From an uncultured Gammaproteobacteria bacterium (GTDB lineage: Bacteria; Pseudomonadota; Gammaproteobacteria; Steroidobacterales; Woeseiaceae): a DNA stretch of 64,000 nt. Positions 35,696 through 42,736 of the stretch are shown here, piece after piece. The stretch spans positions 213 to 64,212 of the forward strand of contig CAWJBO010000005.1 of NCBI GenBank assembly GCA_963841145.1, in the 5' to 3' direction. The stretch's first letter is position 1. Each line of letters starts with the position of its first letter. Under the pieces are notes generated by a model that was not told where the DNA came from, did no database searches, and saw only the letters and a program-made list of their open reading frames with translations. Made by a program: the position numbers and the translations under genes.

Positions 35696-36502
35696 ATGAC
35701 ATTGAACCATCGTTCCCGCCTGCAGGGACTTCGTCTAACGGGGGCACTGACCGCGTTCACGGCTCTGCTCGCCGGCAGCCCGCTTGCGGCACAAACCATC
35801 GATACGGTAAACGGAGCCGAGATTAGTGCCGACGTTTTTAACATGTACCTTGAATCCCGTATTCAAAAGCCGGTCGACCAGGCCACGCCGACCGAGCGAA
35901 CTCGTTTCTTAAGTGAACTGCAGGACATTTACCTCCTGACCACTCAATCGAGCGCCAAAGAGCTCGCTGAAACGCCACGCAACAGAGCGATGATCGAACT
36001 GCAGACTCGTGGCATCCTCGCCCAGGCTGTCGCGGCAGACTTCCTCGATAAGAACGCGGCAACTGACGCTGAAATAGAAGCGGCCTACAAGGAACAAATT
36101 TCCGTTGCGCCACCGCTGGAGTTCAAGGCAAGACACATTCTCGTGGAAACACAGAGCGAGGCCAACAGTATTGTTACCGAGCTCGAGGGCGGAGCAAACT
36201 TCGCCGAGTTGGCGAAAACAAAATCGACCGGACCATCGGGCCCTAACGGCGGCGATCTCGGGTGGTTCGCACCTAATCAGATGGTTGCCCCATTCTCGCA
36301 GGCTGTAGCGGGATTAGAGAACGGTGCATTTAGCAAGGCGCCCGTGCAAACCCAATTCGGCTGGCACGTTATTCTGCGAGAGGACTCTCGCGAAGCAATG
36401 CCGCCAACATTGGAAAGTGTTCGTGACATGATCAAGCAGCGTGTAGAACAAGGGAAACTCCAGGATTACCTGGAAGGTCTGCGCGCGAGTCTCGACAAGT
36501 GA
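35696..36502 (+). CDS. parvulin-type peptidyl-prolyl cis-trans isomerase, secreted
   Basis: The start is taken at ATG 35696, after AAGGA. Has a signal peptide (LTGALTAFTALLAGSPLAAQ) and a PpiC domain (FKARHILVETQSEANSIV...GGDLGWFAPNQMVAPF...QFGWHVILRE). Confidence 0.85.
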   Translation: MTLNHRSRLQGLRLTGALTAFTALLAGSPLAAQTIDTVNGAEISADVFNMYLESRIQKPVDQATPTERTRFLSELQDIYLLTTQSSAKELAETPRNRAMIELQTRGILAQAVAADFLDKNAATDAEIEAAYKEQISVAPPLEFKARHILVETQSEANSIVTELEGGANFAELAKTKSTGPSGPNGGDLGWFAPNQMVAPFSQAVAGLENGAFSKAPVQTQFGWHVILREDSREAMPPTLESVRDMIKQRVEQGKLQDYLEGLRASLDK

Positions 36503-36538
36503 TAGCTACTTAACTTAATACGACTGTTTTCTTACTCG

Positions 36539-36565
36539 AAGGGCGCCTAATGGCGCCCTTTTTTT
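36539..36565 (+). terminator. intrinsic terminator after the PPIase gene
   Basis: Hairpin gggcgcc-taat-ggcgccc followed by TTTTTTT. Confidence 0.8.
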
Positions 36566-36857
36566 ATTCTGAGACTTATTTGTGAAGCTCGTCACACCTC
36601 GATACGGGTAAGGCACCTAGTATTCTCTCCGAGTCATTCCTAATCGCTCGGGGATGGCTCCTCCAACCCTCGCATCTCCCTAACAGGCTGATACGAGATC
36701 TAAGTCGGCAGGGACGCCGACTTTTTTTATTCCCCTGAATCCGCAGACAAAAAAAAAGGCCACCGAGGTGACCTTCTTCTTTGTTCATGACGAGGACCAG
36801 CTGTTCTAAGCGTTCAGCTCCTGATGAGCGATATCAGGTCAATCCTCCAGAACAGAA

Positions 36858-38225
36858 CTAATCTATATCGCCGGATCGATCCGAAAGCATCACACCACGC
36901 TGAGCGGGCCGGATACCTTTGAAGCTCCAGATTGCGCCTGACGGTGCCCCTGAACTCCCGAGACTCGCGGTATAGTCGATCTTCAGGTCGCCAATTTGCG
37001 CGATTCCGGTTTCACTATCGACAGATGACAGCAGACCCGTTACGAAGACTTCGGTTGCTCCCGGAACGTAACTATCAGCCGAGACCGATACATCGTCCGC
37101 GTAAAGCCAGCCCTGAGAAACCACGGATCCTGCGACGGAGACGAAATCCCCTTCGCGCATGCCGGCGAGCATCCTGGGCGAAGCCATCACGATTTGCCCC
37201 ATGGATTCGAAAACGCCGTTGACCCTGTCGATGGAATCGACTGGTCCGGCAAGAATGTCGGTTCCGCCGTTGGCATCAATACCGGTCACGCCGTTGCCGT
37301 CGATTCCGGTTACGCCAGTGGCATCTATACCGATCACGCCATTGGCATCAATACCGGCTCCACCGTTGGCGTCTATTCCGGTTCCACCGTTGGCATCAAT
37401 ACCGGTTCCGCCGTTGGCGTCTATTCCGGTTCCACCGTTGGCATCAATACCGGTTCCGCCGTTGGCGTCTATTCCGGTTCCGCCGTTGGCGTCTATTCCG
37501 GTTCCACCATTGGCATCAATACCGGTTCCGCCGTTGGCGTCTATTCCGGTTCCGCCGTTGGCGTCTATTCCGGTTCCACCGTTGGCATCAATACCGGTTC
37601 CGCCGTTGGCATCTATTCCGGTTCCACCATTGGCATCAATACCGGTTCCGCCGTTGGCGTCTATTCCGGTTCCACCATTGGCATCAATACCGGTTCCGCC
37701 GTTGGCGTCTATTCCGGTTCCACCGTTGGCATCTATTCCGGTTCCGCCATTGGCATCAATACCGGTTCCGCCATTGGCATCAATACCGGTTCCGCCATTG
37801 GCATCAATACCGGTTCCACCGTTGGCGTCTATTCCGGTTCCACCATTGGCATCAATACCGGTTCCGCCGTTGGCGTCTATTCCGGTTCCGCCATTGGCAT
37901 CAATACCGGTTCCGCCATTGGCATCAATACCGGTTCCGCCGTTGGCGTCTATTCCGGTTGCACCGTTGGCATCAATACCGGTTCCGCCATTGGCATCAAT
38001 ACCGGTTCCGCCATTGGCATCTATTCCAGTTCCACCATTGGCATCAATACCGGTTCCACCGTTGGCGTCTATTCCGGTTCCACCGTTGGCATCAATACCG
38101 GTTCCGCCATTGGCGTCAATACCCTTCAAACCACTTGACTCAACACCAGCAAATGCAGGTGCGGTAGCCACAAGTAGCGTCGCTCCCAAAGCGGCAACCG
38201 CTTTGGCGCTTCTTGGAATACGCAT
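36858..38225 (-). CDS. secreted protein with 36 tandem GIDANGGT octapeptide repeats and a 133-aa non-repetitive C-terminal domain
   Basis: ATG 38225 is preceded by AAGGAG. Signal peptide MRIPRSAKAVAALGATLLVATAPAFA. Then 288 aa of 8-residue repeats, then DILAGPVDSIDRVNGVFESMGQIVMASP...GVMLSDRSGDID. The opposite-strand ORFs over the repeat are shadows. No family recognised. Confidence 0.8.
   Translation of the reverse strand: MRIPRSAKAVAALGATLLVATAPAFAGVESSGLKGIDANGGTGIDANGGTGIDANGGTGIDANGGTGIDANGGTGIDANGGTGIDANGATGIDANGGTGIDANGGTGIDANGGTGIDANGGTGIDANGGTGIDANGGTGIDANGGTGIDANGGTGIDANGGTGIDANGGTGIDANGGTGIDANGGTGIDANGGTGIDANGGTGIDANGGTGIDANGGTGIDANGGTGIDANGGTGIDANGGTGIDANGGTGIDANGGTGIDANGGTGIDANGGTGIDANGGTGIDANGGAGIDANGVIGIDATGVTGIDGNGVTGIDANGGTDILAGPVDSIDRVNGVFESMGQIVMASPRMLAGMREGDFVSVAGSVVSQGWLYADDVSVSADSYVPGATEVFVTGLLSSVDSETGIAQIGDLKIDYTASLGSSGAPSGAIWSFKGIRPAQRGVMLSDRSGDID
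37260..38123 (-). repeat. 24-bp tandem coding repeat, 36 units
   Basis: There are two interleaved unit types (coding sense aacggcggaaccggtattgatgcc and aacggtggaaccggaatagacgcc), and both encode NGGTGIDA. Units degenerate at the C-terminal end (GIDANGVI, GIDATGVT, GIDGNGVT). Confidence 0.95.
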
Positions 38226-38321
38226 TTTTCGCTCCTTAAATTTTTGCTCCAACCCTCTTTTCGCTCACGTGACTAACCGATCTCCAATTCGGTTTATCAC
38301 CGTAAGGCGCACATTCATTTC

Positions 38322-39194
38322 TCAGCCGTCAGATTCAACTCCTCTTTCGATCAAGAGTTGTCGCAGCGATCCTAGATCACCCTCATCCTCAACATAGTGA
38401 ACCATATAGAGACCTGTTTCCTTTCGCTCTTCTCCAGGCTTGTTCATGTCACGTCGTGAGGAAAACCAAACATCCATTTCCTCCAGAAACGCTTGACCAT
38501 GCGACTCTTATGTATTCATCAAATGCCCCGATTACCTCGTCCGTACATCCATCATCTGCATATACGAATCTATCAAAATGTCTTTCTGTATCATCCTGTC
38601 TGTCGATGTTCTTGGCCGCTGAGGAAAAAACTCGATAACCAACCTCTCCTAGCCTGACAATGGACGATGGTGATAGTTGTGAGTGCATGTATGCACGATT
38701 CACCGCTTTGTAACGCCCATCAGTTCTCGACTACCGATCCAGACTCCAATCAGTTGGTTTAGCATCTGGCTAGGCGCCATATCTCCGCTGTATCGTTTTA
38801 CTAATTCCATAAAACTCGGAACGTCCGTCACTCGGAATTATCGTATGGCAGCTCCAGCGGTATTCCGTACGGCCCTTGAAACATCGGGTCTGAATACCAA
38901 CCGGTGAGTACACGCGCCGGCCTCGAGTACGTTTTCTCCTTGTGATCCGAAGAAAGCGATCGATCTATTACGTTTTTTACTTCTTTTCTTGTTAGCCCCG
39001 TCAGTATCGCTACGCGCGACTTATTAATTCGACCTTCAGTTTCAAAATGTCGCAGCGCTGTTTCGACATATACTTCTTTGGCTGTCTCCGAAAACTCCGC
39101 GTGCGTAACGCCTTGTGCAATCAGACAGACGCACCAATGGCTTGAACATTAGCGAGAGGGCGCGCCTCAGGTGGTCTTTTACTTCTTGCCCCAT
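38322..39194 (-). pseudogene. HTH-like hypothetical protein, paralogue 2, with at least four frameshifts
   Basis: By my translation the pieces follow each other in shifting frames: MGQEVKDHLRRALSLMFKPLVRL | LIAQGVTHAEFSETAKEVYVETALRHFETEGRINKSRVAILTGLTRKEVKNVIDRS...GIPLELPYDNSE | VTDVPSFMELVKRYSGDMAPSQMLNQLIGV | DGRYKAVNRAYMHSQLSPSSIVRLGEVGYRVF...FDEYIR | SHGQAFLEEMDV...KETGLYMVHYVEDEGDLGSLRQLLIERGVESDG. It aligns along its length with the gene at 39645-40513. Confidence 0.6.
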
Positions 39195-39644: not shown

Positions 39645-40513
39645 TCAGACAATGATAAGTTCTTCAAACAAATCTACCAAGTGTACTTGGCATTCGTATC
39701 TCGCTCTTCGAAGTAGATACAAACCGACAGACACTATATTCTCTTTGTCGTCACCGTTCTCAGCGTTTAGAGATTCATAGGCAATGAACAGATCATCAAA
39801 TGATTCCGCAGTATCAGACAACCTGTCGTAGCTAATACGACGAAGCCGTTGCAAGATCTGCATCGCGAATTCTCAGAGAGTACACAGTGAATTGAGGCAT
39901 AACATCTTGATCGCTTTCCGAATTAGTATTCGTCTCAACGGTCGACAAGATCGGATAAACGCCGTGAACTAGCGATGAAAGTAGATTGTCGACCTGGTCC
40001 GCTGGAATGACGCTTCGTCTCTTCATCGTCAGCCGACCTTTATCGTCCTCTCCAATTGAACCAACCCGTCTTGAGCTCTGTTCGCATTGCGCCTGGCGGG
40101 ACATCGCCACCAAACTTTCTGAACTAAGTCGGAGAACGAACCTTCTCCCTCCGAGAAATGCAGCGCCTTTGGACGGCCGCTGCTGTCAAGAAAGTCTGGT
40201 TCCGCATGCCATCGACTGAGTACCTCGGCCATAGGCGTTGACTTGACTGAAACGAAGTTCTGCCCTCGTTCCAGTTCGTCGCGGATTCGACGAACCTCTT
40301 TTCGAGTCAGACCGGTTATTACAGCGACTCGAGAGATATTTGTCGGACGACCGCGAATTCCAAACTCCGACGAAGCGATATCAACAAATGCGGTCTTGGC
40401 GACTTCGGCAAATTCTCGATAACCGATCCCGTATCTCAACAGAATCTTCGGACAACTGGTCGCAGGACTAGAAGAAAGGCATTCAGGACGCGTTTTTTTA
40501 GGTCATCATTCAT
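39645..40513 (-). pseudogene. HTH-like hypothetical protein, paralogue 1, with at least four frameshifts
   Basis: ATG 40513 gives MNDDLKKRVLNAFLLVLRPVVR | ILLRYGIGYREFAEVAKTAFVDIASSEFGIRGRPTNISRVAVITGLTRKEVRRIRDELERG...GSFSDLVQKV | GGDVPPGAMRTELK | RVGSIGEDDKGRLTMKRRSVIPADQVDNLLSSLVHGVYPIL... | ...RLSDTAESFDDLFIAYESL...LVDLFEELIIV. It resembles an uncharacterised proteobacterial family (possibly the one catalogued as DUF6502, which I cannot verify here). Confidence 0.6.

Positions 40514-40683: not shown

Positions 40684-42736
<2,053 letters not shown>

Follow-up and report, generated by a model that had tools for sequence, protein, structure and literature searches.

An exported octapeptide-repeat protein of Woeseiaceae with a predicted OB-like double barrel belongs to a conserved DUF6502-linked module and may be targeted by a small RNA

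The 64,000-nucleotide (nt) stretch of DNA analyzed here, referred to below as the window, comes from an uncultured gammaproteobacterium of the family Woeseiaceae and carries on its minus strand a gene, hereafter the repeat gene, whose 455-amino-acid (aa) product is made largely of tandem octapeptides. The open reading frame (ORF) listing and its translation give 455 codons plus a stop. The start codon is the ATG at position 38225, located 7 bases after a Shine-Dalgarno sequence. The ORF listing extends the frame to a TTG at position 38252 (36858 to 38252), a start that was rejected because this codon sits inside a conserved element of the 5′ untranslated region (5′-UTR). An earlier note on this DNA had described a Sec-type signal peptide, 36 tandem octapeptides, and a 133-aa C-terminal domain, and all three were recovered, the repeats as 36 in-frame units and the domain as the note had quoted it. 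The predicted signal peptide comprises a basic n-region, a hydrophobic core, and an AFA/GV cleavage site, and is followed by an 8-residue linker before the array. Its pattern, M-x-x-A-[KR]-S-A-[KR]...LGATLI, is kept in 30 orthologues, and in several of them the first G-I unit begins exactly at the predicted signal-peptidase cleavage site. These sequence features mark the product as a Sec-exported protein. A hairpin of the intrinsic-terminator type, found by reading the sequence and missed by a consensus scan, lies downstream of the gene. An exact-sequence look-up of the window protein returned no record.

The array spans 864 nt, all in frame, and 31 of its 36 units read GIDANGGT; four of the five variants fall within the final five. 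Tandem Repeats Finder places it at positions 37259 to 38123 with periods of 48, 72, and 120 nt (87 to 91% matches; scores of 1121 to 1296). The units are encoded by 16 distinct DNA versions, and synonymous differences per site among them (pS = 0.42) far exceed nonsynonymous ones (pN = 0.024; pN/pS = 0.06), which supports the repeat ORF as coding. Comparable values were obtained for between-unit divergence in 14 arrays (pS, 0.31 to 0.71; pN, 0 to 0.10; pN/pS, 0 to 0.27), and one orthologue (locus L012) derives 35 identical peptides from 11 different DNA units. Selection thus keeps the array homogeneous at the protein level, and a DNA-level role is ruled out since variation among units is almost entirely synonymous. 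Two antisense ORFs on the plus strand overlie the array, one at 37159 to 38397 (412 aa, PLASIPVP...) and one at 37194 to 38138 (314 aa, GINTGSAV...); they were rejected as genes, being mirror images of the repeat, and could be miscalled as such.

The array was then compared across relatives in a survey restricted to one genome per species, which returned 65 loci, all of them in metagenome-assembled genomes (MAGs) named Woeseiaceae, Chromatiales, unclassified Gammaproteobacteria, or Proteobacteria. Arrays that are fully assembled within long contigs contain 15 to 49 units, mostly 27 to 43 (more than 25 genomes), so repeat number does vary among relatives, and the 36.0 units of the window are typical. 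A two-unit (16-residue) periodicity is the commonest among arrays; the window array has a five-unit one. About 30 short-read contigs stop inside the array, and those that bridge it often contain only 5 to 10 units, roughly one k-mer or read length, which are probably collapsed versions. This behavior was seen at loci L013, L014, L019, L024, and L028 and at about 25 further loci, where the contig either ends in the array or bridges it with only 5 to 10 units. Because short-read contigs break the array, public entries of the family (about 200 aa, often labeled “partial”) are systematically truncated or collapsed. Three short-read contigs with heterogeneous units (L044, L058, and L068) contain 33 to 37 units each, and long arrays are therefore not an artifact of long-read sequencing.

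The units of 62 loci give the consensus G(0.80) I(1.00) [D/S/T/N] G(0.62) G(0.58) [D/G/S] [V/I/A] [L/A/x]. Orthologous octapeptides include GIDGSGGT, GIDAGGVQ/LL, GITSADAL, GINGGDVL, GISGGDTA, GIHGSSVD, and AIDSSSAF. One aspartate per unit is found in about 78% of arrays, and several orthologues have units devoid of any acidic residue (AITGGSxx, GITGAGTT, and GISGGSVT). Between closely related species, the unit differs at 0.42 to 0.46 per site and the end domain at 0.14 to 0.27, and the G-I of the unit never changes in the species compared. The closest relative is a 1973-nt short-read contig (L154, compared with window positions 35901 to 38800), whose unit, GIDGSGGT, differs from that of the window. 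Its identity to the window is 97% from the array end through the C-terminal domain, the intergenic region, and the gene for a peptidyl-prolyl isomerase (PPIase), and only about 77% upstream, over the signal peptide and DUF6502 sequences (described below). Recombination at the array could have produced this break, or the contig may be chimeric, joined where the repeat collapsed; the latter is likely.

The C-terminal domain was modeled with AlphaFold2 from a 92-sequence alignment (predicted local distance difference test [pLDDT] score, 89.3; predicted template modeling score, 0.83). The model consists of two consecutive five-stranded barrels, with strands at domain residues 3 to 11, 16 to 19, 22 to 25, 38 to 48, and 51 to 63 in barrel 1 and at 70 to 81, 86 to 89, 92 to 95, 110 to 116, and 124 to 131 in barrel 2. 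A motif read from the sequence, G-x-[VL]-x-S-[IV]-D-x-x-x-G, opens both halves, and the most conserved columns in the family are Y64 V65 P66 G67 and T93 I94 D95 Y96 T97. Foldseek searches with the domain model retrieved only weak neighbors with an oligonucleotide/oligosaccharide-binding (OB) fold, i.e., the PolD DP1 OB domain, PilY2 (3tdq), SSB, and RPA, with best E values of 0.015 in the PDB and 0.0085 in BFVD; the full-length model likewise retrieved generic OB folds from the PDB. As modeled, the domain is a tandem OB-like double barrel.

Profile comparisons connect this domain to DUF5666 (PF18914). The window domain itself does not match PF18914 even at an E value of ≤10, but 62 of the 92 family members, scanned singly, match it across barrel 1 below the 27-bit gathering score (best, 23.2 bits), and the 60-residue DUF5666 model aligns whole to barrel 1 of divergent family members. 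Conversely, the domain profile recovers bona fide DUF5666 proteins, namely P0195 (E = 3e-14), P0190 (E = 1.5e-14), and P0162 (E = 2e-22), which score 41.5, 27.3, and 785.9 bits against PF18914; P0162 contains 16 copies of DUF5666. By these profile matches, the C-terminal domain is a divergent tandem member of the DUF5666 superfamily. No function for DUF5666 is given in the parts of the literature found, which merely list it in tables.

The window protein belongs to a large unnamed family of about 900 clusters in which the double barrel is joined to a repeat array. The C-terminal domain retrieved 124 homologues, none of them informatively named, with the same signal peptide and end domain; named sources among them are Woeseiaceae or unclassified gammaproteobacterial MAGs. 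An exhaustive search with the domain profile returned 892 representative clusters at an E value of ≤1e-3, including 183 at ≤1e-10. In most full-length members, a signal peptide and the domain are combined with tandem repeats that share the core [GSA]-[I/V/Q]-x-G-[GST]-[GDS]; their period is 7 to 14 residues, and they are located N- or C-terminal to the domain (for instance, SIGGSDxxxR, GIVGGDTSVN, SISGTG..., and GQTGSGxxxx). In many relatives, a lysine or an arginine immediately precedes the [GSA]-I. Pfam and NCBIfam searches with the whole protein, the repeat part, and the C-terminal domain gave no match even at an E value of ≤10, and PADLOC scans gave none. Against PDB sequences, the hits of the C-terminal domain, family profile, array, and DUF6502 profile did not rise above chance level (for example, adenovirus fiber at E = 0.04 and circumsporozoite repeats). 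Literature searches for the repeat strings and for a Woeseia repeat protein returned nothing relevant.

The observations of the earlier note are thus confirmed, and its interpretation is partly supported. Its remark that neither the repeat nor the C-terminal domain could be assigned to a known family agrees with the empty Pfam and NCBIfam scans and no longer applies to the C-terminal domain, which has an OB-like double-barrel model and whose family profile reaches DUF5666 proteins. Structure prediction, likewise, was confident for the domain and failed for the array, where the pLDDT is about 50. The phylogenetic distribution extends from a syntenic gene in 65 species-representative Woeseiaceae-type genomes to the wider family. 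Its statement that no type I secretion system (T1SS) genes lie nearby holds within about 8 kb, where the neighbors are housekeeping and DUF6502 genes.

On one flank (about 8 kb), these neighbors encode ScpA, YciO, IspA, YciI, BolA, and the PPIase; on the other, two DUF6502 proteins, LigA, ZipA, and SMC. The order in Woeseiaceae is always smc-zipA-ligA-DUF6502-DUF6502-repeat gene, convergent with PPIase-bolA-yciI-ispA, and in each of the 65 Woeseiaceae-type species-representative genomes returned, the repeat gene occupies this position in the core genome; it is therefore a syntenic core gene in this family. Two same-strand DUF6502 genes lie upstream in every locus with enough flanking sequence. 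Among the distant soil-type homologues, all four that were looked up have two or three adjacent DUF6502 genes. Two to four such genes stand beside the repeat gene in every lineage checked. A reciprocal search from DUF6502 confirms this linkage: it returned 79 metagenome loci, of which about 44 have the double-barrel domain adjacent and about 19 more end in a coding array of 24-, 30-, or 48-nt period, the rest being too short. The DUF6502 proteins lack a signal peptide and show weak winged-helix matches around a conserved ...TGLTRKEV... segment; no match to DUF6502 was found in the literature, the PDB, NCBIfam, or PADLOC. In 13 soil-type modules (L007 and L136 to L152), a gene for an OppA/DppA-type SBP_bac_5 lipoprotein is embedded in the module, codirectional with one DUF6502 gene and divergent from the pair formed by a DUF6502 gene and the repeat-protein gene.

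Both DUF6502 genes of the window are broken into several reading frames, which accounts for the ORF-poor stretch of lower GC content (0.44 to 0.47) upstream of the repeat gene. About 25 related genomes carry gene B unbroken, and about 7 long-read “contig_” assemblies have it in pieces; fragmentation of DUF6502 genes was likewise observed in the “contig_” (long-read) MAGs L001, L011, L017, and L022. Alignment of the window DUF6502 genes to those of L009 (71% identity, noisy) did not place the frameshifts relative to homopolymers. The ligA gene (40684 to 42718, minus strand) is also split into at least three reading frames (143-, 192-, and 340-aa pieces), where relatives have a single gene of 673 to 681 aa, through either assembly indel errors or pseudogenization. 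Indel errors are probable in the assembly of the window; the repeat gene is unbroken.

The intergenic region toward the PPIase gene is conserved far above coding DNA (columns at least 90% conserved among 64 genomes, over a stretch of more than 100 nt) and contains a candidate small RNA (sRNA) of about 100 nt, convergent with the repeat gene. RNAalifold predicts its stem-loop 1, in which 5 of 11 pairs show double changes; these amount to 48 double-change cells, compared to 14.4 ± 4.9 in shuffles (none of 500 as high) and at most 16 in slid controls. The G-U pairs in this stem are valid on the plus strand only. Upstream, a putative CRP-type promoter is suggested by consensus and spacing. Its TGTGA-N6-TCACA palindrome is the only perfect copy in the window (0.10 expected) and is centered 41.5 nt from the inferred sRNA start, corresponding to class II spacing; both half-sites and −10 positions 1, 2, 5, and 6 (TAnnAT) are invariant in the 64 genomes, and the spacers vary. 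The best Rfam hit, RF02278, scored 15 bits (E = 0.88; gathering score, 50), and the candidate sRNA is known only from Woeseiaceae-type loci. In the same intergenic region, directly after the PPIase stop codon, a 13-mer, ACTTAACTTAATA (other strand, GATTAAGTTAAGT; 36506 to 36518, plus strand), is at least 90% conserved in 65 loci.

A conserved element in the 5′-UTR of the repeat gene, about 20 to 30 nt 5′ of the ATG, has the core GGTTGGAG in at least 90% of 30 aligned upstream regions. The sequence GGGTTGGAG has two matches in the 64-kb window (0.46 expected). An 8-mer shared by the 5′-UTR and the intergenic region lies upstream in 33 of 33 loci that retain upstream sequence and, in 65 of 69 loci, about 200 nt 3′ of the stop codon; other copies in the 12-kb loci are very rare. 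The candidate sRNA and the 5′-UTR are complementary over 11 nt in the window; in 22 of 28 loci, the match is 7 to 12 nt long and falls at the same position, 18 to 29 nt 5′ of the ATG. Among random 80-mers, 2.5% reach 8 nt or more. RNAduplex energies for the seed, scanned against the window, were −31 kcal/mol for the 5′-UTR (75-nt segment) and −30 to −32 kcal/mol for the best nonself 50-nt windows, over a background of −13.4 ± 4.5 kcal/mol, so energy alone does not discriminate; conservation does. The candidate sRNA may be a CRP-dependent, trans-acting regulator of the repeat-gene mRNA, pairing through its unpaired CUCCAACC(CUC) with GAGGGUUGGAG in the 5′-UTR, which would couple synthesis of the repeat protein to cyclic AMP and carbon status. 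The shared 8-mer could instead be a DNA operator for a protein.

Table 1. Features of the repeat-gene locus, in window coordinates
Feature	Position	Strand	Basis or remark
Repeat gene, coding sequence	36858-38225	-	ORF; 124 homologues found via the C-terminal domain; unit pN/pS of 0.06
Predicted signal peptide, aa 1-26, MRIPRSAKAVAALGATLLVATAPAFA	38148-38225	-	-3/-1 rule; cleavage AFA/GV
Array of 36 octapeptides, aa 35-322	37260-38123	-	Tandem Repeats Finder and translation
C-terminal barrel 1 (modeled), aa 323-385, DUF5666-like	37071-37259	-	AlphaFold2; links to DUF5666
C-terminal barrel 2 (modeled), aa 386-455	36861-37070	-	Internal repeat of barrel 1; AlphaFold2
5′-UTR: GAGGGTTGGAG (38257-38247) and Shine-Dalgarno AAGGAG (38237-38232)	38232-38257	-
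Intrinsic terminator of the repeat gene, AAGGUCAC-CUCG-GUGGCCUU followed by a U run	36749-36775	-	Read from the sequence
Candidate sRNA, about 100 nt	36630-36730	+	Convergent with the repeat gene; covariation, conservation, terminator
Stem-loop 1 of the candidate sRNA	36631-36641 / 36650-36660	+	Compensatory pairs
Unpaired invariant CUCCAACC	36661-36668	+	11-nt complement CUCCAACCCUC at 36661-36671
Stem-loop 2 of the candidate sRNA, invariant helix	3′ of CUCCAACC	+
Terminator of the candidate sRNA	36702-36723, then U7	+
Putative sRNA promoter	36581-36623	+	CRP-type palindrome TGTGAAGCTCGTCACA (36581-36596); -10 TAGTAT (36618-36623)
PPIase-gene terminator	36538-36561	+	Strong; 140 nt from the sRNA terminator
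DUF6502 gene B	38325-39148	-	Hidden Markov model (HMM) built from DUF6502 proteins against six-frame ORFs; 4 reading frames; immediately upstream of the repeat gene
DUF6502 gene A	39648-40502	-	HMM scan; Pfam PF20112 match on fragment 40029-40439; 3 reading frames

Taken together, we tentatively read the locus as encoding an exported beta rod stacked on isoleucine, joined to a binding double barrel and placed under the control of DUF6502 proteins and an sRNA, with a probability of about 0.35. The exported array would fold as a regular parallel beta-structure stacked on the invariant isoleucine, either as a solenoid of two-unit (16-residue) coils or as an interdigitated triple beta-helix like that of phage T4 gp5, and folding would probably require self-association or a cofactor. 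Scaled from gp5, a rod of 36 units would be about 15 nm long and would expose a periodic lattice of aspartate, asparagine, and threonine side chains, with the double barrel capping it and binding a partner. The repeat protein would then be a structural element of the envelope or matrix, not an enzyme or a toxin, and the two upstream DUF6502 proteins are candidate regulators of its gene. The unit is constrained, with isoleucine in 100% and the preceding glycine in 80% of the consensus over 62 loci; the low pN/pS within 14 arrays and the prevalence of a two-unit periodicity point the same way. An AlphaFold model of the full mature protein gives the array a pLDDT of 32 to 60 (about 50), with isolated single-residue bridges every 8 residues; a trimeric or otherwise obligately oligomeric helix would explain this failure of a monomer model.

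Several points weigh against the beta rod. AlphaFold builds no confident fold for the array, the unit is very glycine rich with one or two hydrophobic residues only, and there is no N-terminal cap, the mature protein starting with a repeat unit in several orthologues. The periods of 7 to 14 residues found in relatives are hard to fit with one fixed solenoid cross-section. The likeness to the gp5 motif VxGxxxxx is not significant in a permutation test with the isoleucine fixed (P = 0.31), the window protein and 92 relatives do not match Gp5_C or Phage_base_V, and Foldseek did not retrieve the OB domains of gp5 or VgrG. The regulatory part draws only on conservation, covariation, and complementarity for the sRNA, its promoter, and its target.

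The low pLDDT across the whole array is also what would be expected of a disordered, polyanionic, glycine-rich segment (net charge of about −36) acting as an entropic spacer, a hydrogel or matrix, or a low-affinity binder of cations or minerals, with the barrel domain as the sole folded binding part. A composition of G, D, N, S, T, and A with one aspartate per unit in most arrays fits such a segment, as do the variable period, the N- or C-terminal placement of the array in relatives, and the uncapped free end. However, the isoleucine is invariant and the glycine nearly so across 62 species-level arrays, and strong purifying selection on whole units would be unusual for a mere spacer. In addition, the acid-free units of some orthologues imply that cation binding is not a shared function. 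We consider this explanation unlikely, if better placed than those that follow.

The identity of the units in protein despite their synonymous divergence can also be accommodated by a multicopy precursor, in which the array would be cut before each G-I into about 36 identical octapeptides serving as a lineage-specific signal, imported by an OppA-type protein and sensed by the cytoplasmic DUF6502 proteins. Consistent with such processing, the unit changes faster than the end domain and its G-I boundary is fixed, the array starts at the signal-peptidase site in several orthologues, and K or R precedes [GSA]-I in many relatives. Two to four cytoplasmic DUF6502 proteins are always encoded nearby, and the 13 soil-type modules carry an OppA-like SBP_bac_5 lipoprotein between their DUF6502 genes. 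Nevertheless, the module contains no protease or exporter, and in Woeseiaceae the binding protein is missing from it. The peptides would be unusually rich in glycine and polar, and conservation of the protein is highest in the barrel domain, for which a simple carrier has no use. Moreover, in Woeseiaceae the gene belongs to the core genome and is not an accessory, pherotype-like locus, and we know of no precedent for such a peptide-precursor system in Gram-negative bacteria. A precursor is accordingly quite improbable to us. Its fullest version, a new peptide-signaling system of Gram-negative bacteria in which an exported polyprotein yields octapeptides captured by an OppA-type protein and sensed by DUF6502, with production in Woeseiaceae gated in addition by a CRP-dependent sRNA, is a long shot.

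The earlier note had compared the unit with the calcium-binding nonapeptide of repeats-in-toxin (RTX) proteins (PF00353), which would make the array a beta-roll with one residue deleted per repeat. Both are short tandem repeats rich in glycine and aspartate, and the window unit, with one aspartate, can be read as GGTGID-AN, i.e., GGxGxD. However, the unit has 8 rather than 9 residues, its hydrophobic residue lies elsewhere, and orthologues do not preserve the motif. The GGxGxD reading is lost both from the family consensus (GGDVLGIS) and from the units of the next relatives (GIDANGVL and GIDGSGGT); in the comparison with the 62-locus consensus, it appears only in GIDANGGT, and some orthologues have no aspartate at all. 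HemolysinCabind (PF00353) matched neither the whole protein nor its N-terminal part at an E value of ≤10. An N-terminal Sec-type signal stands in place of a C-terminal T1SS signal, and T1SS genes are absent from the surroundings. AlphaFold usually models RTX rolls confidently, and it builds none here. RTX membership was therefore rejected on the absence of an HMM match and on a motif peculiar to the window orthologue, and a modified beta-roll is hardly credible.

Finally, an assembly artifact, a noncoding repeat, or a DNA-level element such as iterons or binding sites, for which the frameshifts in ligA and both DUF6502 genes of the window, the collapse or breakage of the array in short-read assemblies, and the proximity of chromosome segregation genes could be invoked, is extremely improbable given an 864-nt array that stays in frame, arrays of about 27 to 49 units found at this location in over 20 independent genomes assembled from long and short reads, unit variation that is almost entirely synonymous (the opposite of what a DNA-level element would show), and unit DNA that varies from species to species beside a conserved DUF6502 helix-turn-helix region.

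Woeseiaceae are among the most abundant bacteria of marine sediments, and the window protein is typical of the large, undescribed family and module to which it belongs. The family of about 900 clusters is now defined and its make-up shown, and related modules occur widely across soil and sediment metagenomes. The analysis also links a DUF5666-like domain with DUF6502, both “domains of unknown function” in Pfam, in one conserved module and adds a previously undescribed candidate sRNA with an explicit putative promoter, seed, and target. The array evolves in an unusual manner, its units being identical in protein, scrambled at silent sites, and fast changing between species, and its fold may lie beyond the reach of monomer AlphaFold. 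In short-read assemblies, the repeat gene is systematically truncated.

Among known systems, DUF5666 proteins resemble the repeat protein in carrying a signal peptide and an all-beta OB-like fold, whereas the second barrel, the repeat array, and the linkage to DUF6502 are absent from the Pfam family description. PilY2 (PDB 3tdq; target TM-score of 0.55 to 0.62 over 65 to 73 residues) and other small OB-fold proteins such as CusF and RPA subunits are the best structural neighbors of each barrel; with E values of 0.015 or worse, about 20% identity, and one barrel covered, these are generic fold resemblances that permit no functional transfer. The candidate sRNA resembles CRP-dependent Hfq-type sRNAs (e.g., CyaR) and C-rich sRNAs directed against Shine-Dalgarno sequences (RF02278, Betaproteobacteria toxic sRNA) in its length of about 100 nt, its 5′ stem-loop, its unpaired C-rich seed, its Rho-independent terminator, its perfect class II CRP palindrome, and a predicted 5′-UTR target beside the Shine-Dalgarno sequence. 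It reaches no Rfam threshold and is known only from Woeseiaceae-type loci.

The octapeptide periodicity had also suggested ice-nucleation repeats (PF00818), which have a hierarchy of 8, 16, and 48 residues. The two share the period of 8, the common 16-residue superperiod, and units held identical by protein-level selection despite silent differences, the same argument having been made for ina genes. The suggestion was not borne out. The units contain no tyrosine, no TxT ladder, and none of the AGYGSTxT-type Tyr/Thr/Ser ladders; a signal peptide and an OB-like end domain stand where ice-nucleation proteins have their N- and C-terminal domains; and the PF00818 octamer HMM gave no match in the Pfam scan (E ≤ 10). 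Membership in this family was rejected on the missing HMM match and the missing ladders.

A possible structural parallel is T4 gp5, which combines a triple-stranded beta-helix of VxGxxxxx octapeptides, extending 100 Å per 187 residues, with an OB-fold (PMC4576200). With gp5 and VgrG, the repeat protein shares the period of 8, a beta-branched hydrophobic residue that opens the unit, and an OB-type domain in the same chain; a glycine stands two residues after the isoleucine in 52 to 62% of family units (I-x-G-x-x-x-x-x), and the gp5 order of domain then repeats is found in distant relatives. On the other hand, the repeat protein is predicted to be Sec exported and gp5 is cytoplasmic or virion borne, and the array is longer (288 versus 187 aa), far more glycine rich, and without sequence homology. 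Of the 8 possible rotations of the unit, the one that best fits the gp5 motif is the Ile/Val register, a fit equaled by 31% of column permutations once the isoleucine is fixed, and Gp5_trimer_C gave 2 weak matches (E = 0.013) among the 92 relatives. By analogy with this system, we retain a gp5-like fold as the most attractive structural hypothesis for the array.

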